Source: an uncultured Candidatus Saccharibacteria bacterium (GTDB taxonomy: Bacteria > Patescibacteriota > Minisyncoccia > Phycocordibacterales > DATDWN01). Taken from it: a stretch of DNA of 64,000 nt. The notes beneath the pieces were generated by a model that was given only the letters and a program-made list of their open reading frames with translations, was not told the DNA's origin and made no database searches. The stretch is from NCBI GenBank assembly GCA_964603545.1, contig CAZRVD010000002.1, positions 46,854 to 110,853 of the forward strand, read 5' to 3'. The position numbers and the translations under genes are program-made. Of the stretch, positions 9,618 through 59,734 are shown in pieces. How positions within the stretch are numbered: position 1 is the stretch's first letter; each line of letters starts with the position of its first letter.

Positions 9618-11375
9618 TTATTCGGAAACTACCCGGAGGACTTCTTCGATCGTGGTATAACCCTGCACCGCTTGGAAAATCCCATCCTCTATCATAGTCA
9701 GCATTCCCTCTGCTTCTGCCACTTTTTGTATCTCATCAGATGTCCCGGACTTCAAAATAACCTCTTTAATAGCTGGAGAAACTTTTAAAATCTCGTGGAT
9801 ACCACTTCTTCCTGAAAAAGCCTCGTTTACTGGAACATCTTTTTTGACTCTCCAAAAAGGAACATCTTCCCATTTGTCACTTTTGCCAACAATTTTTTCT
9901 GCTTTTAGTGCATCTAGAACTTTGTCTAGATTGATTGATTTACCAAGGGTGTCGATTTCAGATTTTGTCAGGAAATATTTTTCTTTAAATTCGTTTGTTA
10001 GTTTTCTAACCAGTCTTTGTCCAATAATAATGTTTACGGTAGAAACAATAAGAAAAGGCTCCACTTTCATATCTATAAGTCTCGGTACTGCACCAGCTGC
10101 AGAGTTTGTGTGGAGTGTAGAGAGCACTACATGTCCAGTAAGAGACGCGTTTATCGCCAAACTAGCCGTCTCGTTATCACGAATCTCCCCCACCATGATA
10201 ATATCTGGGTCTTGTCGAACTAAAGTTCGCAGTCCCGATGCAAAAGTAAAACCTATCTCGGGACGAACCTGAGTTTGATTTATTCTTTTCATTTGGTACT
10301 CAATAGGATCTTCAATCGTTGAGATATTTACGTCTGGTGTATTTAATATGTCGAGTACAGTATATAGTGTGGTTGTCTTTCCCGATCCTGTAGGACCTGT
10401 TGTCAAAATCATCCCAGTTGTTGACTTTACCGCTCTATGAATTCTGTCTAAGCCCTCCCCATGAAAAGCCAAGGACTCTAGTGTAAAGCCAGAGACATTT
10501 TCTCGGAGTAATCTCATAACAATTTTCTCACCGTAGTAAGTAGGAAGAGAAGAAACACGGAATGAAACTTTTTCTCCATCTGAATCTATTTTAAATCTTC
10601 CGTCTTGAGGAAGTCTTTTTTCATCAAGTTTAAGTGAGGACAGAACTTTAATACGAGCAGCGATACTTGGCGCCATATTTTTTGGCAAAATCATAGCGTC
10701 GTGAAGTAAACCGTCTATTCTATATCTCACGAGAAGTTCTGCTTCCTGTGGCTCTATATGAATGTCAGAGGCGTTTTGCAAAATTGCATGTTTAAGTAAA
10801 GTATCCACGATTCTAATCATCGGGATATCATCTGCCATCTTCTTCAAATCTTGCTCGTTTAGCTCAGCGCCGTCTGTATTTGAAGGAATACTTTTTATAT
10901 TACTGACATCCTCTGCAATCAAATCACCAAACTCTGCCTTCAAACTTTTTTGATACTGCAAAATTGCACTCTTCATTGAATCGTCATCGGTAAGACGAGG
11001 TAAAATCTTAAGTCCCGTTTTCTTTTTTATAAAATCAATCGCAGTTAAATCTTCGGTATCTAGCATGGCAACTTCCAAACTATTGTCTGACTTTTTGAAA
11101 GCAACAACATTATGATTTCTAGCAATAGGTTCTGGAATAAGAGAGAGAACTTCAAAAGGAAGTTTTTCTTTCTTTAGGTCCACAAAAGGAATACCAAGTA
11201 TGTACGCCTGCATTCTACGAAGATCGTCTTCTGTCAGTTTGCCTTTATTTACCAAAGTTTTACCAATATTCCCCCCTTTTTCTTTGGTTTCTTTTTCGGC
11301 GACCTCAATATCAGCCTTGGAAACAAGACCCGAGTCTAGAATAAAATCTTTTAATTGTTTTTCTTCAATGTGCAT
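9618..11375 (-). CDS. pilB: Type IV pilus assembly ATPase PilB (GspE family)
   Basis: 585 aa. Walker A GPTGSGKTTTLY, GspE N-terminal domain and the conserved His-box region. Confidence 0.9.
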   Translation of the reverse strand: MHIEEKQLKDFILDSGLVSKADIEVAEKETKEKGGNIGKTLVNKGKLTEDDLRRMQAYILGIPFVDLKKEKLPFEVLSLIPEPIARNHNVVAFKKSDNSLEVAMLDTEDLTAIDFIKKKTGLKILPRLTDDDSMKSAILQYQKSLKAEFGDLIAEDVSNIKSIPSNTDGAELNEQDLKKMADDIPMIRIVDTLLKHAILQNASDIHIEPQEAELLVRYRIDGLLHDAMILPKNMAPSIAARIKVLSSLKLDEKRLPQDGRFKIDSDGEKVSFRVSSLPTYYGEKIVMRLLRENVSGFTLESLAFHGEGLDRIHRAVKSTTGMILTTGPTGSGKTTTLYTVLDILNTPDVNISTIEDPIEYQMKRINQTQVRPEIGFTFASGLRTLVRQDPDIIMVGEIRDNETASLAINASLTGHVVLSTLHTNSAAGAVPRLIDMKVEPFLIVSTVNIIIGQRLVRKLTNEFKEKYFLTKSEIDTLGKSINLDKVLDALKAEKIVGKSDKWEDVPFWRVKKDVPVNEAFSGRSGIHEILKVSPAIKEVILKSGTSDEIQKVAEAEGMLTMIEDGIFQAVQGYTTIEEVLRVVSE

Positions 11376-11380
11376 GAGAT

Positions 11381-11480
11381 ACGAAAATTATTCGAACATT
11401 ACGAATGGCTACGAATAATGCGTTTGGCTTTTTCCATTCGCAATCATTCGTTGATTTAAATTATTCGTATATTCGTATGT
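11381..11480. repeat. Array of TACGAA(T)/ATTCGTA heptamer repeats upstream of pilB; shares a 21-mer with the 19625-19760 array
   Basis: GATACGAAAATTATTCGAACATTACGAATGGCTACGAATAATG...CATTCGCAATCATTCGTTG...ATTCGTATATTCGTATG. The string ATTACGAATGGCTACGAATAAT recurs inverted at 19696-19717. Confidence 0.7.
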
Positions 11481-11540
11481 TTATCTTAATTATACCAAAA
11501 TTAAAATCTTATTTCACAAAAAATGTGTAAAAGATTATTA

Positions 11541-20142: not shown

Positions 20143-20168
20143 AGCACCCAATCGGGTGCTTTTTGATT
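20143..20168 (+). terminator. Rho-independent terminator after hup
   Basis: AGCACCC-AATC-GGGTGCT followed by TTTTGATTT. Confidence 0.75.
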
Positions 20169-20189
20169 TGAGTAATTTTATACACAAAC

Positions 20190-20575
20190 GAAAACCGCCA
20201 CCGTTCCCCTGCGTCACAGACGACTTACAGGGAAACGGGGCGGTGGGGTGCGGGCTGGCCAAACTAGAGGTCCGGTCGAAAACTTTATCGAGGTTCACTC
20301 GCCTACTAAAGCCCGTAGAAGATATGCGGGGGCATGCTCAGCGTGCCTACTCGATCAAGGGTTCGTGTGTAGACTTAGAGGTCAACCGTTCCGTATTAAA
20401 TCCTACTCCTGTGAATAAAATTGTAAAGTGGATAAGTGTGTGGGATACGTGGGCTGGGAAACCGGGGGTTTTCCAGTCTATCTGGTTCGATCCCGGGTTC
20501 ATCGGCCACGGATATTTTACTCGTCGAAACAGAAGAAGTTCCGAATCACCTCTTGGTCAGGAATAGTTTTTTGCT
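20190..20575 (+). ncRNA. GC-rich, hairpin-dense noncoding segment with a tRNA-like 3' element (T-arm + acceptor + encoded CCA); family unassigned (tmRNA-like?)
   Basis: A ~16-bp imperfect hairpin CCGCCACCGTTCCCCTG...CAGGGAAACGGGGCGGTGG lies at 20198-20250. Hairpin CTGGGAAA-CCGGGGG-TTTTCCAG. At 20481-20508 sits TCTGG-TTCGATC-CCGGG-TTCATCG-G-CCA (T-stem, T-loop, acceptor 3' strand, discriminator, CCA). It ends in a U-run at 20567-20573. The overlapping ORFs look random. Confidence 0.35.
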
Positions 20576-20630
20576 AAAAACTTTCCCGACCCGACCTCGT
20601 GCCGTCGCACTCCGGTTCACACACGTACGA

Positions 20631-20657
20631 AAAAACCTCCATTCAGGAGGTTATTTT
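20631..20657. terminator. Bidirectional intrinsic terminator (CCTCC-ATTCA-GGAGG flanked by A-run/T-run)
   Basis: AAAAAACCTCCATTCAGGAGGTTATTTT. On the minus strand it follows tRNA-Gly(UCC). Confidence 0.7.
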
Positions 20658-20666
20658 CGTCGTGTG

Positions 20667-20737
20667 TGCGGGATAGCGGAATCGAACCGCTCTCCACAGT
20701 TTGGAAAACTGTTGTTTTACCGATAAACTAATCCCGC
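20667..20737 (-). tRNA. tRNA-Gly (anticodon UCC)
   Basis: Minus strand reads GCGGGAT-TA-GTTT-ATCGGTA-AAAC-A-ACAGT-TTTCCAA-ACTGT-GGAG-AGCGG-TTCGATT-CCGCT-ATCCCGC-A. All four stems pair. CCA is not encoded. Confidence 0.9.
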
Positions 20738-20805: not shown

Positions 20806-21906
20806 ATGTTTTTAAAGGCTATTGCCAGTATTTTAATATCACCAATATTTCTTTTAAGTGAGCTTTTTAATCTGTCTACACCAGAAGTCTATATCGCTCC
20901 AAAAGAACCAGCTGTCATAGTTAAGGAAGAACCAAAGACATCATCTAGCACAGTGGCAAAAATTGTTACAAAAACTGCTACGACAACAAAAAAACAAACA
21001 AAACCAGCAACAAAAAATATTCAAAAACCTGTTGCTGTAGTCCCTCCTATACCACTTCCACCACCAGATTTTGAAACTATAAACACAAATGCAAGAAAAA
21101 CCTTGGTAAACATTTTCTGTACTACAAAGAATAATGATCTCTCCCCCATCTCGGGTACGGGAGTAATAATAAGTAATGATGGACTGATTTTAACCAACGC
21201 CCACATTGGTCAATATTTTTTACTAAAAGATTTTAAAGAAAAAGATTATTTAAAATGTATTGGTAGAGTCGGAAGTCCAGCCTACCCGAAATATAATTTA
21301 GAGTTAGTTTATATTTCTCCAAACTGGGTCAAGGCCAACAAAACACTTTTAAAAGAACAGAACCCCAAGGGCACAGGTGAAGATGACTTTGCATTTCTCA
21401 GAGTTACAGACATGGTAGACGGTTCACAGTTACCTATATTTACATTCATTGAACCAAATATAAATGAAGCTATAAACGTTGGTGAACCAGTCCTACTCGC
21501 CTCTTATCCAGCTGGTTTCCTGGGAGGTCTCTCTATCATCAAGGATTTAAATGTAACAAGTGCCATAACAAACATTCAGGACGTTTTTACTTTTAAAGAT
21601 GGAGAGATAGATGTCATATCTATTGGAGGCACAGTAGTTTCTCAAAAAGGTTCTTCTGGTGGACCTGTTGTCGACAGAAATACATCTCTTATTGGAATTA
21701 TCACTACAAGCTCTGATGGCACCACCACAAGTAGCAGAGGATTAAACGCTATAACACTTGCGTACATAAACAGGACACTTCAAAGTGAACTTGGTATAAA
21801 ACTTCGAGAATTTTTATCTCTTGACCACAGCCAATTTGCAAAAACATTCGCAAACACTACCGGGACAACACTAACCAAACTTATTACCGACGAACTATTG
21901 AGATAA
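20806..21906 (+). CDS. Secreted trypsin-like serine protease (S1 family)
   Basis: His motif ILTNAHIG and Ser motif GSSGGPVV, plus an N-terminal signal/TM. The track ORF starts at 20701 and overlaps the tRNA. The ATG at 20806 is preceded by TGnTATAAT (20791-20799). Confidence 0.8.
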   Translation: MFLKAIASILISPIFLLSELFNLSTPEVYIAPKEPAVIVKEEPKTSSSTVAKIVTKTATTTKKQTKPATKNIQKPVAVVPPIPLPPPDFETINTNARKTLVNIFCTTKNNDLSPISGTGVIISNDGLILTNAHIGQYFLLKDFKEKDYLKCIGRVGSPAYPKYNLELVYISPNWVKANKTLLKEQNPKGTGEDDFAFLRVTDMVDGSQLPIFTFIEPNINEAINVGEPVLLASYPAGFLGGLSIIKDLNVTSAITNIQDVFTFKDGEIDVISIGGTVVSQKGSSGGPVVDRNTSLIGIITTSSDGTTTSSRGLNAITLAYINRTLQSELGIKLREFLSLDHSQFAKTFANTTGTTLTKLITDELLR

Positions 21907-21944: not shown

Positions 21945-24881
21945 ATGACTTCTGCTAATAAAATGATAAAAAAGGTTAGTAAAAAAAGTGTTTTAAAAAT
22001 ATTTTTGTTTTTTTTCGTTTTTATTTCTCTATTACTTGTTAAACCGGATGTAGTTTCTGCTGCGGTTGAAATCTACCCTGGACCGGGTGGTAATGCTTAC
22101 AAGTCAGACCTATATAATGTTGAAGTTTGGGATGGTTCTGCTTGGATTCCAGCTTATGTATATAAGCGAAGTAGAATAAGTACTATGCACTGGCATGTTG
22201 GAACAGTTACTAGTGTGAACTTTCTTACATTTGGTACAACTGGGCCAGTAAATGTAAGAATTAGCAAAGTAAGTGGTCCTATAACTTCAATAGCTGTTAG
22301 TCCAAAGAGTAAAAATATTCAAAACTCAATTAGTGGCGGGCTAGCAACTCTCACTCTAAATATAAACGATAAAACATGGATTACAATTGATGGGGATGAT
22401 GCTAATCCACTGTTTATTTTTGCTGATGCATTCAAACCAGCAGTTCCAGCACCTGGTGCGGGAGTAAAATATTTTGGACCCGGAGTTCAAGATATTTCAC
22501 CTGGAACAGGTAACCACTACTATCCCTCTGATAATGAAATCATTTACCTTGATGGAGGAGCTTGGGTTAGAGGAAACATAATCTTAACTGGCAAGAGTAA
22601 CGTCAAAATAATGGGTCCTGGAATATTATCTGGGGATCTTTGGGATTCGCAAACTATCCAAAACCTTGGATGGAATGGGATGCAAGATTATTTCATGATA
22701 TACGGGGGATCATATGGAACTTTAAATAGTAGCACCGTGAGTGGAATAACCTTGGTGGATTCTCCTGTTTTCAATATTTATAGTATGTCTAGCGCATATA
22801 GTGTGAAAATATTATCTCCATGGTATGCACAAACTGATGGATTCAGTGTGGTTGACGTAGATCAAGTTTTTATTTTCAACGGTGATACCACATTTAATCC
22901 ATATTTAAACTTTTGGTCACCAATAACAAATGGCTATACTGTTAATCTTCGAATAACAAATTCATTTGGAGGTACAGCAAATAATGCTGTTTTTCTAGGT
23001 GGTTTTTATGGAAATCCCCCAGGTGCAAATTTCACATCGCTTGTAGATAATGTTGATATTAAAACTTTTAATGACAACAGCTTTGTCCAATGGGGAGCAC
23101 CACATGAGCCAGCAGTATTTCAAATTTGGGTGGATAATGACAATAGTGGCTATGGTTATAGAAATCAAACATATCAAAACATTCGCATAGAAGGGAATGT
23201 TAATGCTCCTTTAATGCAGTTACAAAATAGAGTCTACCCATCTTATGCTTGGGGAGGTATATCCTATGATCCTCCACTGGGTAATACCGAGAATATTGTA
23301 TTTAAAAACATTACTTTGGAAGGAACACAATCAGATGTCAGTGGACAAAAAAGTGAAATTAAAGGTTGGGATGCTAATAATGGTTTTCGTAACATCATTT
23401 TGGAAAACTTCAGTATGGGTGGAACAGTTCTAAATCAATCTAATATAAGTAACTATATTGATGTAAATAGTTATGTTTGGGGGCTTGGTTTTTCACCGGC
23501 TCCAACAATAGATTCACTATCAGCAAATCCGACTACTATTGTTCAAGGGTCATCATCCACTCTTTCTTGGTCAACAACAAACGCATCTTCGTGTACAGGA
23601 AGCGGATCTTGGACTGGATCTAAGGGAATTTCTGGTAGCCAAACTGTTTTTCCAACAACAAATTCTACATACACATTAACCTGTACTAATTCTGGAGGAG
23701 GAACAGTAAGTAAATCAGTGAGTGTTAGCGTTGCACAAACGAGCCCAATTGGACTCTGGACTCTTGACCAAACTTCAGGCACTACTGCCTCAGACACATC
23801 TGGAAGTGGGTATAATGGCACCTTAATAAACTACACGGGTACTAGTTGGACTACAGGAAAGGTCTCTAATGGTTTGAATTTTGATGGAGTTGATGACCAA
23901 GTTAAAATTAGTGGAGCAACAACTCTGAATAAACTTACTGGTATGACACTATCAGCTTGGGTTAATCCTAGAAGCTCTGGTGGTAATGGTAGTGGTGCTG
24001 GAACAATTTTTACTAAAAGTGGTATCGTGGGTTCTTCTGCAAGATTCCGTATTTTAATGGGAAGTGATGGTTCTAGTATTCAACTTACAGCAAATTACAC
24101 TATTACTTCTGCTGGATGGAAAACACCCACAGGAAGTCTGCCTCTAAATTCTTGGCATCATGTTGTAGTTACTTACACACATGACAATGTAAATAGCATT
24201 CCTAAAATTTACATAGATGGTGTACTTCAGACACTGACCACACTGGGGACTGCATCAGGCGTTGGATTAAATGACGACGACATTCTATACATTGGTAGTA
24301 GAGGTACAAGTGCAACTGGAGTCTTTGATGGAGTTATTGATCAAGCGAGAATATACAACAGAGAATTAAGTTCTGGAGAAGTTACGACTTTGTACAATTC
24401 AGAGAGCTCTCCTCCTCCCATCGACTTCTCCCTTTCCTCTTCCCCATCAACCGTCAAAGTAATGCAAGCAAAGTCAGTTACTAACACTGTTACAGCTACA
24501 CTTGTAAGTGGAACATCTGGAGCGGTGTCATTTAGTGCTAGTGGATTGCCTACTGATGCTACTGCATCATTTTCTCCTACATCCTGTAGTCCAACCTGTA
24601 CTACAACCCTCACCATTGATTCTCTTTCTTCTACCCCAGTGGGTAATTCTACAATTACTGTTACTGGAACAGCTGGAACAGTCACTCGAACAAGTACTTT
24701 TACATTAGATATGAACTACAGGGGTGATATTAACAACGATGGGACTGTAAACTCCATAGACTGGTCCTTAATGAATTTCAAGTGGAACACAAGTGATGTT
24801 TCGACTGACTTAAATAGTGATGGTAATGTAAACTCTGTAGACTTCTCCCTACTTAACGCTAATTGGTTTAAAAGTGGGTAA
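21945..24881 (+). CDS. Large secreted multidomain protein: beta-helix-like region + Ig-like + ConA/LamG-like lectin domain + C-terminal type I dockerin
   Basis: 978 aa with signal/TM. LamG-like LNFDGVDDQVKISG...LSAWVNPRS. C-terminal duplicated Ca-loop repeats DINNDGTVNSIDWSLMN and DLNSDGNVNSVDFSLLN. Confidence 0.75.
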   Translation: MTSANKMIKKVSKKSVLKIFLFFFVFISLLLVKPDVVSAAVEIYPGPGGNAYKSDLYNVEVWDGSAWIPAYVYKRSRISTMHWHVGTVTSVNFLTFGTTGPVNVRISKVSGPITSIAVSPKSKNIQNSISGGLATLTLNINDKTWITIDGDDANPLFIFADAFKPAVPAPGAGVKYFGPGVQDISPGTGNHYYPSDNEIIYLDGGAWVRGNIILTGKSNVKIMGPGILSGDLWDSQTIQNLGWNGMQDYFMIYGGSYGTLNSSTVSGITLVDSPVFNIYSMSSAYSVKILSPWYAQTDGFSVVDVDQVFIFNGDTTFNPYLNFWSPITNGYTVNLRITNSFGGTANNAVFLGGFYGNPPGANFTSLVDNVDIKTFNDNSFVQWGAPHEPAVFQIWVDNDNSGYGYRNQTYQNIRIEGNVNAPLMQLQNRVYPSYAWGGISYDPPLGNTENIVFKNITLEGTQSDVSGQKSEIKGWDANNGFRNIILENFSMGGTVLNQSNISNYIDVNSYVWGLGFSPAPTIDSLSANPTTIVQGSSSTLSWSTTNASSCTGSGSWTGSKGISGSQTVFPTTNSTYTLTCTNSGGGTVSKSVSVSVAQTSPIGLWTLDQTSGTTASDTSGSGYNGTLINYTGTSWTTGKVSNGLNFDGVDDQVKISGATTLNKLTGMTLSAWVNPRSSGGNGSGAGTIFTKSGIVGSSARFRILMGSDGSSIQLTANYTITSAGWKTPTGSLPLNSWHHVVVTYTHDNVNSIPKIYIDGVLQTLTTLGTASGVGLNDDDILYIGSRGTSATGVFDGVIDQARIYNRELSSGEVTTLYNSESSPPPIDFSLSSSPSTVKVMQAKSVTNTVTATLVSGTSGAVSFSASGLPTDATASFSPTSCSPTCTTTLTIDSLSSTPVGNSTITVTGTAGTVTRTSTFTLDMNYRGDINNDGTVNSIDWSLMNFKWNTSDVSTDLNSDGNVNSVDFSLLNANWFKSG

Positions 24882-24948
24882 ATGGTGAGACAGATGATTG
24901 TTACTATGTTATTATTTATTCAATAATAATTAATTTTTTATTAAAAAC

Positions 24949-25599
24949 ATGGATTACATACATAATAAAATCTCTGAAAACGTTAATTGGTATCGAAAGT
25001 GGCATGACATGGATGGCCCAGATTTAATCCACTGGCTCTTGTTCATTTTAGTTGCAGTACTTGCTTGGTCTTCTATAAATGGACAGGTCTATTTGTGGTT
25101 AAATGAAATTAGTGAACAGGAAATTGTAGTTAAGCTACCAAATAGTAATGCCACTCTTTCCCTAGACCCACAAACAAGCACAGTAAGAGTTGGTGATGTG
25201 TTTACTGTTAACGTTATTTTAAATACAAATGAAGGGTCTGTAGATGGTGTAGATATATATGGTCTACATTATGACCCAAGCATACTGGAGGTTATAGACG
25301 ACATATCAAAACAAAAAGGTGTGCAAATAGAACCTGGCAAAATCTTGCCAAACAACGCCGTAAACAGCGTAAACCCATCCACTGGTACAATAAAATTAGG
25401 TCAACTTTCATACGGTGGTGAAAAATTCACAGGCAGAGGCACACTAGCCACAATTCATTTCAAGGCCGTCGGTGTCGGAAGCTCATTTTTGAAATTTGAT
25501 TTTGAAAAAGGAAGCACAATAGACACAAACGCTGCGTACAAAGGTAGAGACAAATTAGCAAAGGTTGTGGATGCAATTTATACAGTTACAGAAAAATAA
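24949..25599 (+). CDS. Membrane-anchored cohesin-domain protein
   Basis: 216 aa. TM LIHWLLFILVAVLAW, then a cohesin-like beta-sandwich signature VGDVFTVNVILNT...VDGVDIYGLHYDPSILEV...GTLATIHFKAVGVGSS. Confidence 0.65.
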   Translation: MDYIHNKISENVNWYRKWHDMDGPDLIHWLLFILVAVLAWSSINGQVYLWLNEISEQEIVVKLPNSNATLSLDPQTSTVRVGDVFTVNVILNTNEGSVDGVDIYGLHYDPSILEVIDDISKQKGVQIEPGKILPNNAVNSVNPSTGTIKLGQLSYGGEKFTGRGTLATIHFKAVGVGSSFLKFDFEKGSTIDTNAAYKGRDKLAKVVDAIYTVTEK

Positions 25600-25602
25600 C
25601 AT

Positions 25603-27189
25603 ATGAAAAAATATCTAAAAATTACTGCCCTTTCTATATTTGTAATGACGGGCTTAGTCCTTGGTCTATCAAGCAAAAATGTTACGGAAGCAGCAACCAC
25701 AGCTACATTAAGTTTGTCCCCCACATCTTCTAGTATTATTTTAAATCAAAACTTTACAGTTAATATTCTACTGGACACTGTTGGTAATGCCACTGACGGT
25801 GTTGATGTTTTTTCACTCCACTTCAATCCAGCAATTCTACAAGTTGTAGACAGTAACGCATCTGTGGCTGGGGTGCAGATTGCTCCTGGATCTCTTATGC
25901 CAGCAACCACAGCAAATGTTGCAGATAACACAGCTGGAACAATACAATTCTCCCAAGCATCATCTGGAGGTAGTAATTTCACTGGAAGTGGAATTTTGGC
26001 CACAATCACTTTTAGAGCCAACGCTGTTGGCTCTAGCGCGGTTACTATGGACTTTACTCCAGGAAACACAGCTGATACTAATGTAGCTTTCCAAGGAACT
26101 GATCTTTTGCTTTCCGTTACTAATGGTACTTATACGGTTGTTAATCCTTTTGATTTCTCCGTAACTACAACAGGTGGTCCCAAATCTGTAACTCAAGGAT
26201 CATCTGTAACTCAAGCTGTTAGCTCAACTCTTATATCTGGTACAGCGGCGTCTGTGACATTTTCAGCGTCAGGACTACCAACTGGAGCTACAGCTTCTTT
26301 TTCACCCGCCTTATGTACTCCTACTTGTACAACAACAATGACTATTACTACTACAGGTTCTACACCAGTAGGAACTTCTAATGTAGTAGTTACGGGAACA
26401 TCAGGAGCAACAGTTCGAAACGCTACAGCTTTCGTTTTGACGGTGAACGCGGTGCCTCTAGATTTCTCCGTAACTACAACAGGTGGTCCCAAATCTGTAA
26501 CTCAAGGATCATCTGTAACTCAAGCTGTTAGCTCAACTCTTATATCTGGTACAGCGGCGTCTGTGACATTTTCAGCGTCAGGACTACCAACTGGAGCTAC
26601 AGCTTCTTTTTCACCCGCCTTATGTACTCCTACTTGTACAACAACAATGACTATTACTACTACAGGTTCTACACCAGTAGGAACTTCTAATGTAGTAGTT
26701 ACGGGAACATCAGGAGCAACAGTTCGAAACGCTACAGCTTTCGTTTTGACGGTGAACTTAGCTAATTATAATCGTACAATCCAAATAGACCCGGAAGGTA
26801 TTTCAAACAAAATACTATCTGGGACACTCGATGTTTTAAACCCCTCAAAAGTTTCGATCAAGACTTATCCATTTACCACAAACTCATCTGGACAAGCTAC
26901 AATTTCATTTGATATTTCTCCTCAAGTTGTGTATTTGAAACTTAACCCCACACCATTCCTTGCAAGACTGATTAGTTTAGATTTAAACACAAATACTACA
27001 TACGTATTTCCAAAACTTCTAACTGGAGATCTTAATAATGACAACTTAATTAACTCTGTAGATTACTCTGTGTTAAATGGAAACTGGTTTACCTCTAACG
27101 CCACGTCAGACCTAAACAAAGATGGTTTGGTTAACTCTATAGACTTCTCATTTATGAATCAACACTGGTTAGTAAATGGTGATGCGTAA
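25603..27189 (+). CDS. Secreted cohesin + 2x Ig-like repeat + C-terminal dockerin protein (adaptor scaffoldin-like)
   Basis: 528 aa. Signal peptide, cohesin-like TDGVDVFSLHFNPAILQV, two identical 103-aa repeats, and dockerin DLNNDNLINSVDYSVLN...DLNKDGLVNSIDFSFMN. Confidence 0.7.
   Translation: MKKYLKITALSIFVMTGLVLGLSSKNVTEAATTATLSLSPTSSSIILNQNFTVNILLDTVGNATDGVDVFSLHFNPAILQVVDSNASVAGVQIAPGSLMPATTANVADNTAGTIQFSQASSGGSNFTGSGILATITFRANAVGSSAVTMDFTPGNTADTNVAFQGTDLLLSVTNGTYTVVNPFDFSVTTTGGPKSVTQGSSVTQAVSSTLISGTAASVTFSASGLPTGATASFSPALCTPTCTTTMTITTTGSTPVGTSNVVVTGTSGATVRNATAFVLTVNAVPLDFSVTTTGGPKSVTQGSSVTQAVSSTLISGTAASVTFSASGLPTGATASFSPALCTPTCTTTMTITTTGSTPVGTSNVVVTGTSGATVRNATAFVLTVNLANYNRTIQIDPEGISNKILSGTLDVLNPSKVSIKTYPFTTNSSGQATISFDISPQVVYLKLNPTPFLARLISLDLNTNTTYVFPKLLTGDLNNDNLINSVDYSVLNGNWFTSNATSDLNKDGLVNSIDFSFMNQHWLVNGDA
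26152..26769 (+). repeat. Perfect tandem duplication (2 x 309 bp) inside the cohesin-dockerin gene
   Basis: 26152-26448 and 26461-26757 are identical by direct comparison (GATTTCTCCGTAACTACAACAGGTGGTCCC...TTGACGGTGAAC). Each encodes one Ig-like module. Confidence 0.85.
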
Positions 27190-27203
27190 TTAAATAAAAA
27201 TAA

Positions 27204-28469
27204 ATGAAAAAATTCTTCATAGTAATAATCTTAGTTATTGGTTTTTCAATTTTTGCCCCACAGGCTTCAGCTGCCACCTTAATTCTATCTCCCTCTTCGG
27301 GAAATGTTACTGCTGGTCAGACTATTACTGTCGATATAATGCTTGATACTAAAAATGCAGATATTGATGGTGTTGATGTTTATTCTCTACACTACAATCC
27401 AGCTATTTTAGAGGTAGTAGACAGTAGTTCATCTGCTTCTGGAATACAAATAACCCCAGGAAGTTTGTTCCCTATCACCTTAACTAACAAAGTTACAAGT
27501 GGTGTGGTTCAATTTTCTCAAGTAACAAGTGGAGGAACCTCCTACAAGGGTGCTGGCAAACTAGCTACTATTACATTTAAAGGATTATCAAACGGAACTT
27601 CTGCGGTCACTTTTGATTTTACACCAGGAAGCACTTCAGATACTAACGTAGCGGGAGGAGGTAAGGATGAATTAACAAGTGTGGGTAGTGGTAGTTATAC
27701 GGTAACCGGCGGAGGTGTTACCCCGCCCCCACCACCACCAGTTGATACTACAGCACCAGTTATATCTGCAATTAGTTCTTCGGGGATTAAATCAAGTAGT
27801 GTAAATATTGTGTGGACAACAGATGAATCTTCTGACACGGTAGTTGAGTATGGTCTCACTACATCATATGGATCTCTGAGTACAAACTCTTCTCTACTAA
27901 CTCTTCACTCAAGGTCATTAGTTAATCTAAAATCAAACACTCTTTACCACTTCCGAGTAAAATCAAAAGATGCTGCAGGAAACCTGGCTGTCTCTACTGA
28001 TAAAACATTCACTACTCTGGCTGGTTCCTCCACTCCTCCTCCACCACCAACTCCTACCCCGACACCTACACCTGGTCCAGGTCCAGCTCCTAGACCAACA
28101 CCTACACCGTCTCCAACATCTAGTGGTACTGGCCCTAGACTCTCTTCAATATACGCCTTAGAGATTTCTGATAGTTCCGCAATAATTTCATGGAAAACAG
28201 ACAGGCCATCTGATTCCAAAGTGGAATACGGCAAAACAGATAGCTATGAATCAAGTACGGAAGTTAATTCATCTTTTGTCACTTCACACTCATTTAATTT
28301 ATCAAACCTTTCATCGGGCACAACATACCACTACCGTGTAAGATCAATTGATGAATCAGGTAATTTAACTTTTTCTGGCGACAGAACTTTTACAACAATT
28401 AATGTTATTGAAAATGACATGAACTTCTTTGAAAGAATTTGGGATTGGTTTATCTCTCTATTTGTTTAG
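27204..28469 (+). CDS. Secreted cohesin + Pro-rich linkers + 2x fibronectin-III-like domains, C-terminal hydrophobic tail
   Basis: 421 aa. Cohesin-like IDGVDVYSLHYNPAILEV. Linkers PPPPPP and PTPTPTPTPGPGPAPRPTPTPSP. Two FN3-like modules (SS..I.W.TDE.SD..VEYG). Tail FERIWDWFISLFV. Confidence 0.7.
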   Translation: MKKFFIVIILVIGFSIFAPQASAATLILSPSSGNVTAGQTITVDIMLDTKNADIDGVDVYSLHYNPAILEVVDSSSSASGIQITPGSLFPITLTNKVTSGVVQFSQVTSGGTSYKGAGKLATITFKGLSNGTSAVTFDFTPGSTSDTNVAGGGKDELTSVGSGSYTVTGGGVTPPPPPPVDTTAPVISAISSSGIKSSSVNIVWTTDESSDTVVEYGLTTSYGSLSTNSSLLTLHSRSLVNLKSNTLYHFRVKSKDAAGNLAVSTDKTFTTLAGSSTPPPPPTPTPTPTPGPGPAPRPTPTPSPTSSGTGPRLSSIYALEISDSSAIISWKTDRPSDSKVEYGKTDSYESSTEVNSSFVTSHSFNLSNLSSGTTYHYRVRSIDESGNLTFSGDRTFTTINVIENDMNFFERIWDWFISLFV

Positions 28470-28470
28470 C

Positions 28471-28773
28471 CTACTGCTTTATACCTTCTGCTGAAATCTG
28501 GATTATCACATCAAAGCTGTCAGAAGTGACAGCTTTGTTCGTTTTAGAAAAGCCACATCTAATACATTTGTGAGTAATTATATATTCACTTCCCTTTTTG
28601 CTAACTCCTACTGGCTCCATCATACCCTCGCATTTCTCTGCCCTATCTCCAGGAAAAATATCCAAGTGTTTTGACCACAGACAATGTGGGCAATGATTTG
28701 TGTATCCATTCCCCTTCACTACTGTCCCACATTTCTCACAAACAAAATTTTCCTTATTTTTTATGAAAGTCAT
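28471..28773 (-). CDS. RNHCP-domain zinc-ribbon protein
   Basis: 100 aa. CEKCG...YTNHCPHCLWSKH...CIRCG matches the RNHCP signature. Confidence 0.7.
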   Translation of the reverse strand: MTFIKNKENFVCEKCGTVVKGNGYTNHCPHCLWSKHLDIFPGDRAEKCEGMMEPVGVSKKGSEYIITHKCIRCGFSKTNKAVTSDSFDVIIQISAEGIKQ

Positions 28774-29915: not shown

Positions 29916-29918
29916 TTG

Positions 29919-29991
29919 TCGGGGTGCCGGGATTCGAACCCGGAGTCGCTTGTTCCCAAAACAAGAATGTTAGCCGTTACACTACACCCCG
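29919..29991 (-). tRNA. tRNA-Pro (anticodon UGG)
   Basis: Minus strand reads CGGGGTG-TA-GTGT-AACGGCTA-ACAT-T-CTTGT-TTTGGGA-ACAAG-CGACT-CCGGG-TTCGAAT-CCCGG-CACCCCG-A. Confidence 0.9.
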
Positions 29992-30971: not shown

Positions 30972-31042
30972 GCGGGTATGGTTTAATGGTAGAACACGTC
31001 CTTGCCAAGGACGAGATCCGGGTTCGATTCCCGGTACCCGCA
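30972..31042 (+). tRNA. tRNA-Gly (anticodon GCC)
   Basis: GCGGGTA-TG-GTTT-AATGGTA-GAAC-A-CGTCC-TTGCCAA-GGACG-AGAT-CCGGG-TTCGATT-CCCGG-TACCCGC-A. Confidence 0.9.
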
Positions 31043-31070
31043 CAAATTTTAACGCAGTGAAATCACTTTG

Positions 31071-31142
31071 TGCTCCCGGCAGGAATCGAACCCACATCCA
31101 CGGTTCCGAAGACCGGTACTCTATCCGTTGAGCTACGGGAGC
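31071..31142 (-). tRNA. tRNA-Arg (anticodon UCG; one C-U mismatch at 27-43)
   Basis: Minus strand reads GCTCCCG-TA-GCTC-AACGGATA-GAGT-A-CCGGT-CTTCGGA-ACCGT-GGAT-GTGGG-TTCGATT-CCTGC-CGGGAGC-A. Its overall similarity is to enterobacterial tRNA-Arg. Confidence 0.7.
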
Positions 31143-33878: not shown

Positions 33879-34820
33879 CTATCTATTATGAAACTTTTTA
33901 TGAATATCCCTCAGATGTTTATCTGTTACGTGTGTGTATATTTGAGTAGTAATGATACTTGAATGACCTAAAAGAGCTTGCACGGAACGAAGATCTGCAC
34001 CGTTGGAGAGTAGATCGGTAGCAAAAAGGTGTCGCATTGTATGAGGAGTAACTTTTTTGGAAATACCCGCTTTTGTAGCGTGTTTTTTAATTATTCTTTC
34101 AATTGACCTGTTTGTTAGAGGTTTAGCCTCTTTTGTTGCGATTTTCCCATCATTTGATTTTTTATTTTTAGATTCTTTGGCTATTTGAACAAAAAGAGCA
34201 TCGCTCATATCCTTACGAGCCGAAAGGTAAGCCCTGACACTTTTTTTTGCTTCATCTGAAATAAAAACCACGCGAACTTTACCTCCTTTTCCTCGAATAG
34301 AAAGTTCATCTGTACTTAAATCTATGTCTGAAGTTAGAGAACAAAGTTCAGAAACACGCAGTCCTGTAGAAAATAGGAGTTCTAGTACAGCCTTATCTCT
34401 CAAGTCTCTTAAGTCATTGCCATCTGGAGACTGTAACAGACGAGTTAGTTCTGCATGGGTAATAAGGTCAAGAGAACGCTCTCCGACTTTGGCCAATTCT
34501 ATACGTTCTGCTGATAAAGACTTTATTTCTTGCCTTGCTAGATATTTTAAAAATGCCCTTAGAGCAATTAGATAATAATTTTGGGTCTTTTTTGAAAGTG
34601 TTTCGGTTTTTATTTTACTCTGGCCAGTTAGTTGCCTGTTAAGCCACAAACGAAACTCACGAACTGAGTCTCCGGTAATTTTAGCGGGGTCGTCATTTTT
34701 GGAATAATCTAAAAATCGAGTCAAATAATGGTCATAATTCTCAACTGTTTTCAGGGATCGACCTCTTTCTATCTCAATATATTCCAGAAACTGCTGTTTT
34801 AGTTGTTTTAGGGAAGCCAT
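33879..34820 (-). CDS. Tyrosine site-specific recombinase XerC/XerD-like
   Basis: 313 aa. C-terminal catalytic motifs HTMRHLFATDLL...LLGHSSIITTQIYTHV. Confidence 0.85.
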   Translation of the reverse strand: MASLKQLKQQFLEYIEIERGRSLKTVENYDHYLTRFLDYSKNDDPAKITGDSVREFRLWLNRQLTGQSKIKTETLSKKTQNYYLIALRAFLKYLARQEIKSLSAERIELAKVGERSLDLITHAELTRLLQSPDGNDLRDLRDKAVLELLFSTGLRVSELCSLTSDIDLSTDELSIRGKGGKVRVVFISDEAKKSVRAYLSARKDMSDALFVQIAKESKNKKSNDGKIATKEAKPLTNRSIERIIKKHATKAGISKKVTPHTMRHLFATDLLSNGADLRSVQALLGHSSIITTQIYTHVTDKHLRDIHKKFHNR

Positions 34821-58182: not shown

Positions 58183-59523
58183 ATGATGGAAAACAAAAAG
58201 CTTTGGGATGGTGTCTTGGTTGAAATGGAGTTAAATCTATCCAAACCAAACTTCAATACTTGGTTCAAAGACACATTTATAGTTAAACAAGAGAACGGCG
58301 CGGTTCACCTTGGAGTCCCAAACACTTTTGTACAAGACTGGCTCAGTAGTAAATTCCACAACACCATCCTAAAAGCCTTAAGAAACATCTCCAGTAACGT
58401 CCAATCACTACACTACACTATCTCTAGGGAAGACATGAAAGAGAGAGCTTTATCAGAGAAACCCCAACAAACCACAAGGGAGTTACCGATCGCAGATACC
58501 TATATAAATAAGGAAGACAATCTTAACCCTAGATACACCTTTGATACTTTTGTGGTCGGGCCATTTAATGAATTTGCCCACGCAGCCAGCCAAGCAGTAA
58601 TTAAAAAACCTGGAATAGTTTACAACCCGCTATTTGTTTATGGGGGAACTGGACACGGAAAAACTCACCTTATACAAGCCATGGGTAATTACTTAAAAAG
58701 TTCTGGGAATAGAAAAGTTTTTTATACTACTTCAGAAAAGTTTTCTCAGGAACTCGTTAATGCCATACAAGCAAACAGGCCAAACTTTTTTAAGGAGAAA
58801 TACAGAAAATATGATGTTTTAATAATGGATGATGTTCAGTTTTTCTCTGGAAAAATGAAAACCCAGGAAGAGTTGTTCCATTTGTTTAATCATTTATACG
58901 AGAACAACAAACAGATAATCTTCTCCTCAGATAAGCACCCAGCCCTGATCCAAGACCTTGAAGATCGCCTCAAATCCAGATTTAGTGCTGGAATGACTGT
59001 AGACATACCCACACCAGACAATGAGTCCAGAATTGCCATTATTAGAGCTAAATTGAACAGTAGTGAGTATCCGCTGTCTAAAGAGGTTATTGAGTATCTA
59101 GCATACTCAATAAATGGAAACATTAGGGAACTAGAAGGAATAATAAACTCAATAACCTGCCAGTCACAACTTAAAGGTAGAGAACTTTCACTTTCAGAGG
59201 TTAAAAATTTTGTTAAAAACAACACTAGACCTAAAAAAATAATTTCAATAAAAGAGGTTGTCAAAACTGTTTCTGATTTTTATAACATAGAAGAACAATT
59301 AATTTACGACAAGACTCGCAAAAAAGAGATTATAAAACCTCGACAAATAATCATGTATATCTTACGTGAAGATTTTAACATCTCTTTCCCTGCAATAGGG
59401 GAAAAACTTGGTGGAAGAGATCATACAACCGTTATGCACTCGTGTGAAAAAATTAAAAATGATGTAAAAACAGACGAACTTTTACTACAAGAGATAAACC
59501 AACTGCGGTCTATCTTTGTGTAA
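58183..59523 (+). CDS. dnaA: Chromosomal replication initiator DnaA
   Basis: 446 aa. Walker A GGTGHGKTHL, box VII, and the C-terminal DNA-binding HTH (GGRDHTTVMH). Confidence 0.95.
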   Translation: MMENKKLWDGVLVEMELNLSKPNFNTWFKDTFIVKQENGAVHLGVPNTFVQDWLSSKFHNTILKALRNISSNVQSLHYTISREDMKERALSEKPQQTTRELPIADTYINKEDNLNPRYTFDTFVVGPFNEFAHAASQAVIKKPGIVYNPLFVYGGTGHGKTHLIQAMGNYLKSSGNRKVFYTTSEKFSQELVNAIQANRPNFFKEKYRKYDVLIMDDVQFFSGKMKTQEELFHLFNHLYENNKQIIFSSDKHPALIQDLEDRLKSRFSAGMTVDIPTPDNESRIAIIRAKLNSSEYPLSKEVIEYLAYSINGNIRELEGIINSITCQSQLKGRELSLSEVKNFVKNNTRPKKIISIKEVVKTVSDFYNIEEQLIYDKTRKKEIIKPRQIIMYILREDFNISFPAIGEKLGGRDHTTVMHSCEKIKNDVKTDELLLQEINQLRSIFV

Positions 59524-59734
59524 AAGATTGTGTATAGTGTGTATATAAGTTCTTGGTAATATTGTAAAAAGTGTTAATTGTTTAAGTAGATTTATAGGTT
59601 TTATATCTTTATATATAACTTATTAACATTTCAAATCATATAAAATGGCTAATATTAAGGATATATTAATCTTTTCCAGTTTTACACAGGATATATAATA
59701 ATTAATCTTAAAAGAAATAAATTAAACTAATACT
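59524..59734. other. Candidate oriC / DNA unwinding region (dnaA-dnaN intergenic, extremely AT-rich)
   Basis: By position, between rpmH-rnpA-yidC, dnaA and dnaN. Only degenerate DnaA-box-like 9-mers are present: TGTGTATAG, TGTGTATAT and TTTTACACA, each 2 mismatches from TTATCCACA. Confidence 0.45.

Follow-up and report, generated by a model that had tools for sequence, protein, structure and literature searches.

Do four consecutive genes of a CPR bacterium encode a cellulosome-like scaffold, and were they acquired as an island? Both had been proposed in the original prediction for the ORFs P1 to P4, which occupy positions 21945-28469 of the forward strand in the 64-kb stretch of DNA analysed here (the window). 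The coordinates, strand and lengths claimed for these ORFs (978, 216, 528 and 421 aa) were all reproduced, the motifs quoted for them are present in their translations, and the source, guessed to be a reduced, CPR-like genome, is indeed a member of the CPR.

Gene layout of the locus

A six-frame HMM scan of the entire 64 kb identified exactly three cohesins and two dockerins, all within the P1-P4 block and all above Pfam gathering cutoffs, which bears out the module identities first read from the translations. The genes are closely spaced: the gap before P3 is 3 nt and that before P4 is 14 nt (Table 1). A terminator-like hairpin 43 nt past the P4 stop codon, within a convergent RNHCP gene, is possibly the end of the operon. 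Immediately 5' of P1 lies a gene for a trypsin-like protease (called as 366 aa in L001), which is kept in the Parcubacteria bacterium C7867-003 and is absent from loci L005-L008, where the three cohesin genes are found. It is regarded here as a neighbour gene, its membership of the cohesin-dockerin system being uncertain.

Table 1. Features of the cohesin-dockerin locus and its flanks (positions in the window)
Feature	Position	Strand	Basis
tRNA Gly-UCC	20666-20737		
S1 serine protease, trypsin-like, N-terminal hydrophobic signal/anchor	20806..21906	+	Pfam Trypsin_2, 47.7 bits
P1, 978 aa, secreted cargo with dockerin	21945..24881	+	ORF and domain matches
P1 GH49-like region, aa 39-537 (N-terminal beta-sandwich, right-handed beta-helix)	22059..23555	+	AF2 and Foldseek
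P1 Laminin_G_3/ConA-like lectin module, aa 647-813	23883..24383	+	Pfam PF13385, 80.7 bits
P1 Ig-like spacer, aa 816-925	24390..24719	+	BLASTP
P1 dockerin, bare	24723..24878	+	Pfam Dockerin_1
P2, 216 aa, class-A cohesin with membrane anchor	24949..25599	+	Pfam Cohesin, hydropathy, orthologue alignment
P3, 528 aa, monovalent adaptor	25603..27189	+	AF2 model, orthologues
P3 cohesin module, aa 30-181	25690..26145	+	
P3 Ig-like spacer tandem duplication, unit 309 nt (103 aa)	26146..26754	+	Repeat search
P3 X-like small beta-sandwich, aa 386-469	26758..27009	+	AF2 model
P3 dockerin, adaptor class	27010..27186	+	Pfam Dockerin_1
P4, 421 aa, stalked class-C cohesin	27204..28469	+	Pfam Cohesin and fn3 matches
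P4 cohesin	27273-27728	+	Pfam, isolated module
P4 conserved C-terminal W/F-rich tail	28422-28466	+	Orthologue conservation
Terminator-like hairpin, 11-pair stem	28512..28537	+	Consensus scan only
tRNA Pro-UGG	29918-29991		
tRNA Gly-GCC	30972-31043		
tRNA Arg-UCG	31070-31142		

P1, a dockerin-bearing cargo protein

P1 has a hydrophobic N-terminus (aa 11-43) and consists of a signal peptide, a GH49-like region, an Ig-like module, a Laminin_G_3 module, an Ig-like spacer and a dockerin. The beta-helix originally proposed was confirmed by an AF2 model (pLDDT 92.7, pTM 0.91) and could be refined to a GH49-like fold: Foldseek analysis against the PDB matched the region to 3wwg (E 1.7e-18, TM 0.71), 6nzs and 1ogm, with GH28 structures being weaker matches. 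The two-domain fold is shared with GH49 enzymes of clan GH-N (Penicillium Dex49A dextranase, Aspergillus isopullulanase and Arthrobacter dextranase), and the alignment to GH49 structures spans its full length (TM 0.67-0.71, E 1e-15 to 1e-18), albeit at only 16-20% identity. A family profile of the region matches Dex49A (1ogm, E 8.3e-4), with TDG and GD aligning to Asp376 and Asp395, two of the three catalytic Asp residues, both retained in P1; by column counts, the equivalent of the third, Asp396, is N across the family and T in P1. The putative acid residues of P1 are D298, D306 and D314. As this third residue is replaced and a Pfam scan of P1 gave no GH49 match, its catalysis and substrate remain putative; going by the model, the region with its GH49-like (dextranase/isopullulanase) fold is a plausible catalytic domain. 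Other members of this unannotated family carry SLH, FN3, Big_7 or LamG tails and, among 121 retrieved, a dockerin is present only on P1.

The ConA/LamG-like domain that had been predicted corresponds to Laminin_G_3 and is probably a carbohydrate-binding module. The spacer that follows it shares its module type with the P3 repeats (BLASTP against the P3 repeat, 55% identity, E 2e-24). The C-terminal dockerin, also as predicted, scored 33.7 bits within the full-length protein and 39.9 bits when isolated (cutoff 22.9) and comprises two 22-residue repeats, DINNDGTVNSID and DLNSDGNVNSVD, each followed by a helix. An X module was looked for beside this dockerin and none was found.

P2, P3 and P4, the cohesin-bearing proteins

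P2 possesses a conserved N-terminal tail of ~25 aa, a single TM helix (~aa 26-45, by hydropathy) and a cohesin (aa 65-216; 40.1 bits, cutoff 24.1), in agreement with the anchor plus cohesin first described. Read from the sequence, the charges around its N-terminus are not in clear accord with the positive-inside rule. TM-cohesins of ~205-220 aa form a recurring class.

P3 has approximately 25 full-length orthologues and was modelled with domain boundaries (AF2, pLDDT 90.4). It consists of a signal peptide, a class-B cohesin, two Ig-like spacers, an X-like beta-sandwich and a dockerin, so that the predicted order of cohesin, two Ig-like repeats and dockerin holds. The cohesin was missed in the whole-protein Pfam scan and scored 34.4 bits as an isolated module, and the dockerin, with 28.2 bits when the whole protein was scanned, reached 33.6 bits on its own, with model helices at 485-493 and 512-520. 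The spacers are 99% identical copies of a tandem duplication; L001, an otherwise identical assembly, has a single copy (BLASTN against the window), the 425-aa version of the protein being P0242. The X-like sandwich (model strands 389-460, pLDDT >90) directly abuts the dockerin, forming an X-Doc-like dyad; it resembles cellulosomal X modules by position, and a Pfam scan of it as an isolated domain matched no family.

P4 begins with a signal peptide and a class-C cohesin (missed in the whole-protein scan, 34.3 bits once isolated), followed by a Pro-rich linker, an FN3 module, a Pro/Thr-rich linker, a second FN3 module and a W/F-rich tail. The linkers show proline repeats and both FN3 modules were matched by Pfam (FN3/Pur_ac_phosph_N), as expected from the architecture claimed. 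The hydrophobic tail also claimed is real and its motif is conserved among orthologues, but it is shorter than a TM helix. A sortase motif was sought in P4 and none was found.

Cohesin and dockerin classes and their conservation across the CPR

The three cohesin modules of the window are paralogues (45-58% identical), and the family numbers 5,575 representatives at 50% identity. Against the PDB, a deep family profile matched cohesins of cellulosomes (3l8q, E 9.6e-4), cohesins making up eight of its twelve matches. Across loci the modules fall into three orthologous classes, with 64-71% identity within a class and 46-57% between classes, and the nearest neighbour in another locus belongs to the same class in 17 of 18 cases. 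Genes of the P2, P3 and P4 types occur in the same order at L003-L008, which, L005 (GCA_034680565.1) aside, are by record title Parcubacteria, Saccharibacteria, Patescibacteria group and Doudnabacteria.

Two dockerin classes were distinguished: an X-Doc adaptor class with 74% mean identity across loci, and bare or diverse cargo dockerins with 41%; this split is similar to that between scaffoldin and enzyme dockerins of cellulosomes. Among 118 dockerin-bearing homologues, 93 have the X-like module next to the dockerin (gap 0-4 aa) and 88 (97 of 127 in a first set) combine cohesin and X-Doc in one polypeptide, counts that are biased to P3/P4 designs as the homologues were retrieved with P3 and P4 queries. 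All four dockerin repeats of the window share a near-identical putative recognition pattern, NS[IV]D[WYF]S..N..W, and a strict binding hierarchy may therefore not exist between the P1 and P3 dockerins.

Comparison with known systems

Cellulosomal adaptor and anchoring proteins include the monovalent adaptors ScaC/ScaH and the anchor ScaE of Ruminococcus flavefaciens, as well as ScaB of Acetivibrio cellulolyticus. The locus shares the assembly logic of such systems, and to that extent the description of it as cellulosome-like stands. It differs in having one cohesin per protein and one dockerin enzyme, in lacking a multi-cohesin primary scaffoldin, CBM3, cellulases and hemicellulases, and in its anchors, where an N-terminal TM helix and a putative C-terminal tail take the place of SLH or sortase anchoring. 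A search of the 64-kb window for a multi-cohesin scaffoldin, a cellulose CBM, an SLH or sortase anchor or a second dockerin enzyme found none. The host also differs, being a member of the CPR whose genome is reduced, as does the cargo, which is adhesin-like in other lineages. The system is thus not a true cellulosome and is read here as a simple surface tether with one socket per protein.

Non-cellulosomal cohesin-dockerin systems include the Clostridium perfringens toxin complexes of GH84 NagJ and GH33 NanJ and proteins of Archaeoglobus fulgidus, and were reportedly surveyed by Peer and co-workers in 2009. The present system differs from these in its conserved three-cohesin operon, with orthologous classes in several CPR lineages, and in its dedicated membrane-anchored cohesin and adaptor. 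Among CPR bacteria, the dockerin protein SEML1_0315 of Southlakia epibionticum is essential (PMC10633639), cohesin and dockerin proteins are expressed in Shapirobacterales (bioRxiv 10.1101/2021.08.21.457207), and surface modules of both kinds have been proposed to act in glycan targeting or adhesion (PMC10633639; bioRxiv 10.1101/2021.08.21.457207). SEML1_0315 (927 aa, Ig-rich) is encoded by a stand-alone gene that no cohesin genes adjoin; these earlier reports are single-gene mentions in which the operon, paralogue classes and GH49-like cargo are not described. No description of a three-cohesin CPR operon with orthologous classes, a membrane-anchored cohesin and an adaptor was found in the literature searched, and we know of no earlier account of one.

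Proposed mechanism and alternative explanations

We propose, with a probability of about 0.6, that the locus is a vertically inherited, non-cellulosomal cohesin-dockerin operon for surface display. The identities and folds of the modules, the conservation of the operon, the paralogue classes and the lack of island signatures are established by the results above, whereas topology, Ca2+-dependent binding, cohesin-dockerin pairing, catalytic activity and substrate are inferred, as follows. All four proteins would be exported or inserted into the membrane, with signal peptides on P1, P3 and P4 and one TM helix on P2. P2 would be a type II membrane protein displaying its cohesin near the membrane, while P4, probably retained at the envelope by its conserved tail, would present its cohesin at the distal end of the Pro-linker/FN3 stalk. 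As a monovalent adaptor and spacer, P3 may dock its conserved X-Doc dyad Ca2+-dependently into one of these anchoring cohesins and capture the bare dockerin of P1 with its own class-B cohesin, so that the putative glycoside hydrolase and LamG lectin module would be tethered away from the cell surface. The anchor, adaptor and cargo roles first suggested fit the architectures of P2, P3 and P1, respectively.

It is very improbable that the block is instead an island of cellulosome type, gained horizontally for the breakdown of plant polymers and inserted at tRNA genes by the nearby recombinase. The predicted tRNA genes, Gly(UCC) on one side and the Pro/Gly/Arg group on the other, are present, as is the Xer-like gene at 33879-34820, a tyrosine recombinase 5.4 kb downstream; moreover, proteins on Mb-scale contigs from outside the CPR share 50-57% identity with the GH49-like family, which could mean a past acquisition of the catalytic domain. 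Against this, gene order from ClpP to rpsO is identical in C7867-003, the tRNAs and Xer gene included, at 74-82% protein and about 74% nucleotide identity, and GC, GC3 and codon usage of P1-P4 are within the background of the window. A search of the window for att-like or flanking direct repeats found none. The entire recombinase is covered by matches to XerD/XerC/XerA; it adjoins rpsO in both the window and C7867-003 and, by its sequence, is of the housekeeping XerC/D type. These results contradict the acquired island, as for a cellulosome does the lack of a multi-cohesin scaffoldin, cellulose CBM or cellulase in the window; the operon was inherited vertically and not recently acquired.

The other alternatives concern pairing. 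P3-type proteins could bind each other head-to-tail into a surface fibre or lattice, structural or adhesive more than an enzyme tether, with P2 as the membrane base and P4 and P1 as terminators or tip subunits. This is unlikely, if the strongest of the alternatives: cohesin with X-Doc is the dominant architecture, the high conservation of the adaptor dockerin is as expected of a fixed structural contact, spacer number varies between one and two Ig units and cargo elsewhere is adhesin-like, but characterised cellulosome adaptor scaffoldins avoid self-binding through divergent cohesin/dockerin specificities (PMC12484212), and three cohesin classes kept distinct suggest directed pairings, not one promiscuous contact. 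Somewhat less likely still is that the modules do not pair at all and independently bind other ligands (host-cell glycans, S-layer or peptidoglycan), their clustering reflecting only a shared surface function. Complementary modules are adjacent and in the same order at at least six loci, large dockerin cargo genes lie immediately upstream of the cohesin genes at L008-L011, Ca-loop residues are canonical in both dockerin repeats and nearly invariant family-wide, and the cohesin-only homologues with TM, peptidoglycan-binding or SH3 domains resemble anchors awaiting dockerin partners; all of these argue against such independent binding.

Within this operon, P1 would act on a polysaccharide, by cleavage or binding, that may be alpha-glucan-like or another extracellular or host-surface type. 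The suggested role in attachment or polymer degradation may hold for the enzyme-like cargo found here, but breaking down polymers is not what the system serves in general, since the same operon in other CPR lineages has adhesin-like, non-enzymatic cargo (Ig/TIG/CarboxypepD_reg proteins). The cohesin trio is a conserved chassis whose dockerin cargo is exchangeable between lineages, an enzyme-like protein in this bacterium and adhesin-like elsewhere, and its main clients may be other dockerin proteins encoded outside the 64 kb.

Organisation of the gene block

Four consecutive ORFs on the forward strand form a compact block with intergenic gaps of 67 nt (P1-P2), 3 nt (P2-P3) and 14 nt (P3-P4). 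They encode a putative dockerin-bearing cargo protein (P1), a cohesin with a predicted membrane anchor (P2), an adaptor possessing both a cohesin and a dockerin (P3) and a stalked cohesin (P4). An ORF check reproduced the coordinates and lengths in the original prediction, and the positions of the nearby tRNAs and of a Xer-like gene also matched it. Promoter-like matches upstream of P1 and P2 were not in excess (29 versus 24.3 expected from shuffles). The P4 sequence also occurs, with 100% identity, in 'Parcubacteria group bacterium Gr01-1014_46', so the assignment of this DNA to the CPR, made initially as a guess, was right.

Coordinates of the genes of the block and of other features discussed (window positions)
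Feature	Position	Strand	Description
P1	21945-24881	+	ORF, 978 aa
P2	24949-25599	+	ORF, 216 aa
P2 N-terminal tail	24949-25023		aa 1-25
P3	25603-27189	+	ORF, 528 aa
P3 Ig spacers	26146-26754		309-nt tandem duplication
P4	27204-28469	+	ORF, 421 aa
P4 C-terminal tail	28422-28466		aa 407-421
GC-rich ORF	1050-1691	-	213 aa
Segment before tRNA-Gly	20156-20660		136-aa GTG ORF
Trypsin-like serine protease	20806-21906		secreted or anchored
dnaA	58183-59523		
dnaN	59735-60835		

Cohesin and dockerin modules

The N-terminal modules of P2, P3 and P4 are clear paralogues (45-58% identical). Using the Pfam Cohesin model (PF00963, gathering cutoff 24.1 bits), the P2 module was identified in the whole protein with 40.1 bits; those of P3 and P4 were not called by whole-protein Pfam scans and were recovered as isolated modules (34.4 and 34.3 bits, respectively). 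The same model matched 19 of 27 diverse members of the family. A profile of three cohesin sequences gave marginal matches only among PDB entries (E 0.3-0.5), and that of the 27-member family matched cellulosomal cohesins (best hit 3l8q, E 9.6e-4), with cohesins making up eight of its twelve matches. The nine-stranded flattened beta-sandwich (jelly-roll) typical of cohesins was found, AF2 modelling having covered P3 and aa 39-537 of P1. By family match and fold these modules are real cohesins, predicted to bind dockerins in a Ca2+-dependent manner. Their subfamily is large, with 5,575 representatives at 50% identity with E <= 1e-3 (318 with E <= 1e-30). It includes proteins of nine (2276 aa) and five (1030 aa) cohesin modules, indicating that true multi-cohesin scaffoldins of this subfamily exist somewhere, and in some relatives the cohesin is fused to peptidoglycan-binding or SH3 domains.

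Dockerins of type I (PF00404, Dockerin_1; gathering cutoff 22.9 bits) were identified in P1 (39.9 bits as an isolated module, 33.7 in the whole protein) and P3 (33.6 and 28.2 bits, respectively). All five cohesin and dockerin modules that had been read from the translations thus exceed the Pfam cutoffs, and a six-frame HMM scan of the 64 kb located exactly three cohesins and two dockerins, all within the block. Each dockerin consists of two segments of ~22 residues, an EF-hand-like Ca loop (D-x-N-x-D-x-x-x-N-x-x-D) being followed by a helix. Across the family alignment the loop positions hardly vary, and the P3 model places helices at 485-493 and 512-520 after the loops (pLDDT ~94). Mean identity is 74% among dockerins of the adaptor class (tight) versus 41% among those of the cargo class (diverse).

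The P3 dockerin is preceded by a small beta-sandwich, a putative X module (aa 386-469; modelled confidently by AF2, at 389-460) for which an isolated-module scan matched no Pfam family. Of 118 dockerin-bearing homologues, 93 have this sandwich against the dockerin (gap of 0-4 aa), a count that, like those of the cohesin subfamily, is biased to these designs, as the homologues were retrieved with P3, P4 and cohesin queries. The P1 dockerin is bare, without such a module. The pair of P3 and P1 echoes the X-Doc dockerins of cellulosomal scaffoldins as opposed to the bare dockerins of cellulosomal enzymes.

Putative adaptor and anchoring proteins

The full-length AF2 model of P3 (40 sequences, mean pLDDT 90.4) comprises, in order, a signal helix, a beta-sandwich (aa 34-180), two Ig modules, the small beta-sandwich and a C-terminal helix pair. 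P3 is secreted by prediction and has one cohesin and one dockerin with spacers between them, as do monovalent adaptor scaffoldins. The ScaC/ScaH monovalent adaptors of R. flavefaciens serve as spacers (PMC12484212), and the placing of P3 beside them is an architectural one only. The two Ig spacers are the product of a tandem duplication, with copies 99% identical. L001, another assembly from the same population, has a single 309-nt unit (11198-11500), giving a P3 of 425 aa, and is otherwise 100% / 99.98% identical to the window; two copies are present in the P3 of C7867-003, a Parcubacteria relative. Either the adaptor truly varies in length or an assembly has collapsed the repeat. Distant P3 orthologues possess Big_7 or FN3 spacers instead, the cohesin, pre-dockerin sandwich and dockerin being kept.

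Typical hydrophobic N-terminal signal sequences were identified on P1, P3 and P4. P2 has one predicted transmembrane (TM) helix at ~aa 26-45, preceded by a conserved tail of 25 aa. An exhaustive search showed proteins of this kind to be a recurring class: at ~205-220 aa, they join an N-terminal TM helix to a P2-type cohesin through a low-complexity linker. The W/H-rich P2 tail (M-[DE]-x-IHN..SE...WY[RK].WH.MD), presumably cytoplasmic, is strongly conserved in close orthologues and absent from more distant TM-cohesins of equal size. P4 ends in a W/F-rich tail, FFERIWDWFISLFV, whose motif F-E-[RK]-[IF]-x-x-W-[FIL]-[IL]-S-[LF]-F is common to orthologues from several genera; the tail is not long enough to form a TM helix and matches no known sorting signal. 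No LPxTG motif was found in P1-P4, nor did Pfam match SLH modules in the proteins of the block. The two FN3 modules of P4 and the Laminin_G_3 module of P1 were both matched by Pfam in whole-protein scans.

P1, the putative cargo protein

P1 aa 39-537 belongs to a well conserved family (160 matches, 43-57% identity) without a Pfam model, several members of which sit on Mb-scale non-CPR contigs; their C-terminal tails vary (SLH and TIG, FN3, Big_7 or LamG). The AF2 model of this region (pLDDT 92.7, pTM 0.91) comprises an N-terminal beta-sandwich and a right-handed parallel beta-helix, the fold of GH49. The beta-helix-like region of the original prediction was thereby borne out, with GH49 as the matching fold and GH28 polygalacturonases far weaker. 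Foldseek analysis gave a full-length match to isopullulanase (PDB accession no. 3wwg; E 1.7e-18, TM 0.71), and the GH49 matches 3wwg, 1wmr, 6nzs and 1ogm, the latter two being dextranases, range over E 1.7e-18 to 1.2e-14 and TM 0.67-0.71.

At sequence level the relationship is remote. Pfam Glyco_hydro_49 and 49N gave no P1 match at E <= 1, a precomputed GH49 domain was present in none of the 120 P1 homologues listed, and the N-terminal region had no PDB sequence match when used as a single sequence. The profile of the family gave a remote match to the dextranase Dex49A (1ogm, E 8.3e-4), in which the motifs 'sTDGf' and 'GD' align on Asp376 and Asp395. We take the catalytic residues of Dex49A to be Asp376, Asp395 and Asp396 (numbering after Larsson et al. 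2003). The equivalent of Asp376, D298 of P1, is kept in 53 of 55 family members and that of Asp395, D314, in all 55; the position of Asp396 is occupied by Asn (46), Glu (6), Thr (2, P1 among them) or Asp (1), and an additional Asp, D306, is kept in 52 of the 55. On sequence and modelled fold, P1 is plausibly a glycoside hydrolase of clan GH-N. Downstream of the putative catalytic region are an Ig-like module, a LamG lectin module, a second Ig-like spacer with 55% identity to the P3 repeats, and the dockerin. Among 121 retrieved members of the enzyme family, P1 alone has a dockerin; one is also present in its orthologues at four other loci (L001-L004).

Public annotation gives no glycosidase name to P1, the protein with the glycosidase-like fold. 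The submitter names of P4 ('glycoside hydrolase family protein') and of the 425-aa P3 ('exo-1,4-beta-D-glucosaminidase') are not supported by domain content.

Conservation of the cohesin genes among CPR

Genes of the P2, P3 and P4 types recur as a trio in constant order: a TM-anchored cohesin (class A), an adaptor running from cohesin to putative X-Doc (class B) and a cohesin-stalk protein with a signal peptide (class C). Such trios were found in loci labelled Saccharibacteria (L006), Patescibacteria group (L007) and Doudnabacteria (L008), and in a further locus (L005) of other genomic context, between MurJ and LepA and without P1. In Yanofskybacteria, Daviesbacteria and a MAG labelled Gammaproteobacteria the arrangement is looser, with one or two cohesin genes after a dockerin cargo. 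The contig search by exact patterns gave 6 loci and under-samples the taxonomic spread. Cohesin identity is 64-71% within a class versus 46-57% between classes, and in 17 of 18 cases a cohesin's closest counterpart at another locus shares its class; these three orthologous classes indicate that the triplication is old and that each copy has been maintained. In other loci the cargo encoded upstream of the cohesins carries TIG, CarboxypepD_reg, SdrD_B or FN3 domains or is unannotated, and is not enzymatic by Pfam.

Genomic context

The block had been proposed as a possible acquired island, a reading that had to be abandoned. In C7867-003 (identity of 74% for P4 and 82% for P3) the same order is found: ClpP, RNase Y, HU, protease, P1, P2, P3, P4, RNHCP, UPF0102, CCA-adding enzyme, Exo_endo_phos, Xer and S15. 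The tRNAs, too, keep their positions. At nucleotide level the 7.8-kb block is 73.6% identical between the two genomes and its flanks are 76-81% identical. P1-P4 (GC 0.375-0.401, GC3 0.240-0.309) lie within the distribution of the 42 other window genes in GC, GC3 and synonymous codon usage, and a repeat search found no att-like direct repeats flanking the block. Matches to XerD/XerC/XerA models span the whole recombinase, whose gene adjoins rpsO in both genomes; on these matches the enzyme is of the housekeeping type. Synteny of both flanks, typical composition, the lack of such repeats and the housekeeping Xer together rule out a genomic island or integrated mobile element.

The 213-aa ORF on the reverse strand (GC 0.50 versus a window mean of ~0.375), which has no Pfam family, is by composition a stronger candidate for foreign origin than the cohesin genes are. 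The segment between the HU-gene terminator and tRNA-Gly also has a raised GC (0.44); no Rfam RNA was found in it, and its 136-aa ORF, called as a gene in another assembly, has no Pfam match. In C7867-003 the equivalent position is taken by a DUF2784 gene, encoded on the other strand. The trypsin-like protease gene lies directly upstream of P1 and is kept in C7867-003; the trios of other loci lack it. dnaA and dnaN are adjacent (211-nt gap) and have the lowest GC of the window (0.285-0.297), and the chromosomal replication origin probably lies within 58183-60835.

Comparison with known systems

Of the cellulosome-like interpretation, the modules and the assembly logic stood, the latter being like that of cellulosomal anchoring and adaptor scaffoldins, but the reading as a cellulosome did not. 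P2, P3 and P4 have one cohesin each, with no others in the window, so that a multi-cohesin primary scaffoldin is lacking; the 64-kb window gave no match to CBM or cellulase families, the sole dockerin enzyme in it being the GH49-like P1 rather than a set of cellulases or hemicellulases with a cellulose CBM; and in place of SLH or sortase anchoring, P2 has its predicted TM helix.

Non-cellulosomal cohesins and dockerins are widespread, and such systems were reportedly surveyed by Peer et al. in 2009, a study cited in PMC10066038. Those of the glycosidase complexes of C. perfringens and of A. fulgidus proteins are closer to this operon than cellulosomes are. In the CPR literature dockerin and cohesin proteins are mentioned in passing only. 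SEML1_0315 is an essential dockerin protein in a cultivated Saccharibacterium (PMC10633639); as a stand-alone Ig-rich gene it was rejected as an instance of the same operon. Expressed cohesin and dockerin proteins of Shapirobacterales were read as a cellulosome (bioRxiv 10.1101/2021.08.21.457207). Full-text literature searches found no description of a three-cohesin operon. The families to which its parts belong are already known; what appears to be new, as far as sequence can tell, is a monovalent, membrane-anchored operon of three cohesin classes with exchangeable cargo, conserved among CPR and here accompanied by a GH49-like enzyme.

Proposed model and significance

The analysis above establishes what the modules are, their folds, the paralogue classes and the conservation of the operon; topology, binding, pairings, catalysis and substrate we infer, proposing that a Ca2+-dependent cohesin-dockerin relay would operate on the cell surface. 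P2 would be the membrane-proximal socket and P4 a second socket, held on a stalk of Pro-linkers and FN3 modules. P3 would act as monovalent adaptor and spacer, its conserved X-Doc plugging into an anchoring cohesin and its own cohesin capturing the bare dockerin of P1, the GH49-like/LamG working end.

The main rival to this relay is head-to-tail polymerisation, by which proteins with both a cohesin and an X-Doc would assemble into fibres; a cohesin is also present in 88 of the 93 homologues in which the sandwich abuts the dockerin. All four dockerin repeats of the window have the pattern NS[IV]D[WYF]S..N..W in common, so dual binding modes and overlapping specificities are possible and the pairings may not follow a strict hierarchy. 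A second, weaker alternative gives the modules ligands of other kinds; if they do not bind each other, the finding shrinks to a cluster of ordinary surface proteins. Returning to the surface relay, its broadest form would make the three-cohesin operon an ancient, CPR-wide, general-purpose plug-and-socket apparatus by which these ultra-small, host-dependent bacteria would build and re-tool their surface, with exchangeable cargo (glycosidases, lectins, adhesins) extended from the cell, possibly by head-to-tail cohesin/X-Doc chains. We give this bold reading about one chance in four.

To our knowledge, surface organisation, host attachment and nutrient uptake in CPR/Patescibacteria are largely uncharted, with only pili and a few surface proteins implicated. 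The cluster is compact and amenable to recombinant expression, with its three cohesin classes, two classes of dockerin and exchangeable cargo. Being conserved, it gives a concrete and testable way into the construction of CPR cell surfaces, by which that question would become one of simple binding and localisation experiments. Cohesin-dockerin biology would be extended to a membrane-anchored, monovalent form in a reduced genome, to an uncharacterised GH49-like enzyme family without a Pfam model and, if the predicted pairing holds, to new orthogonal cohesin-dockerin pairs for protein-assembly engineering. Were the broad reading true, the apparatus would be a major determinant of host attachment and feeding in these bacteria and would not be functionally related to the cellulosome.
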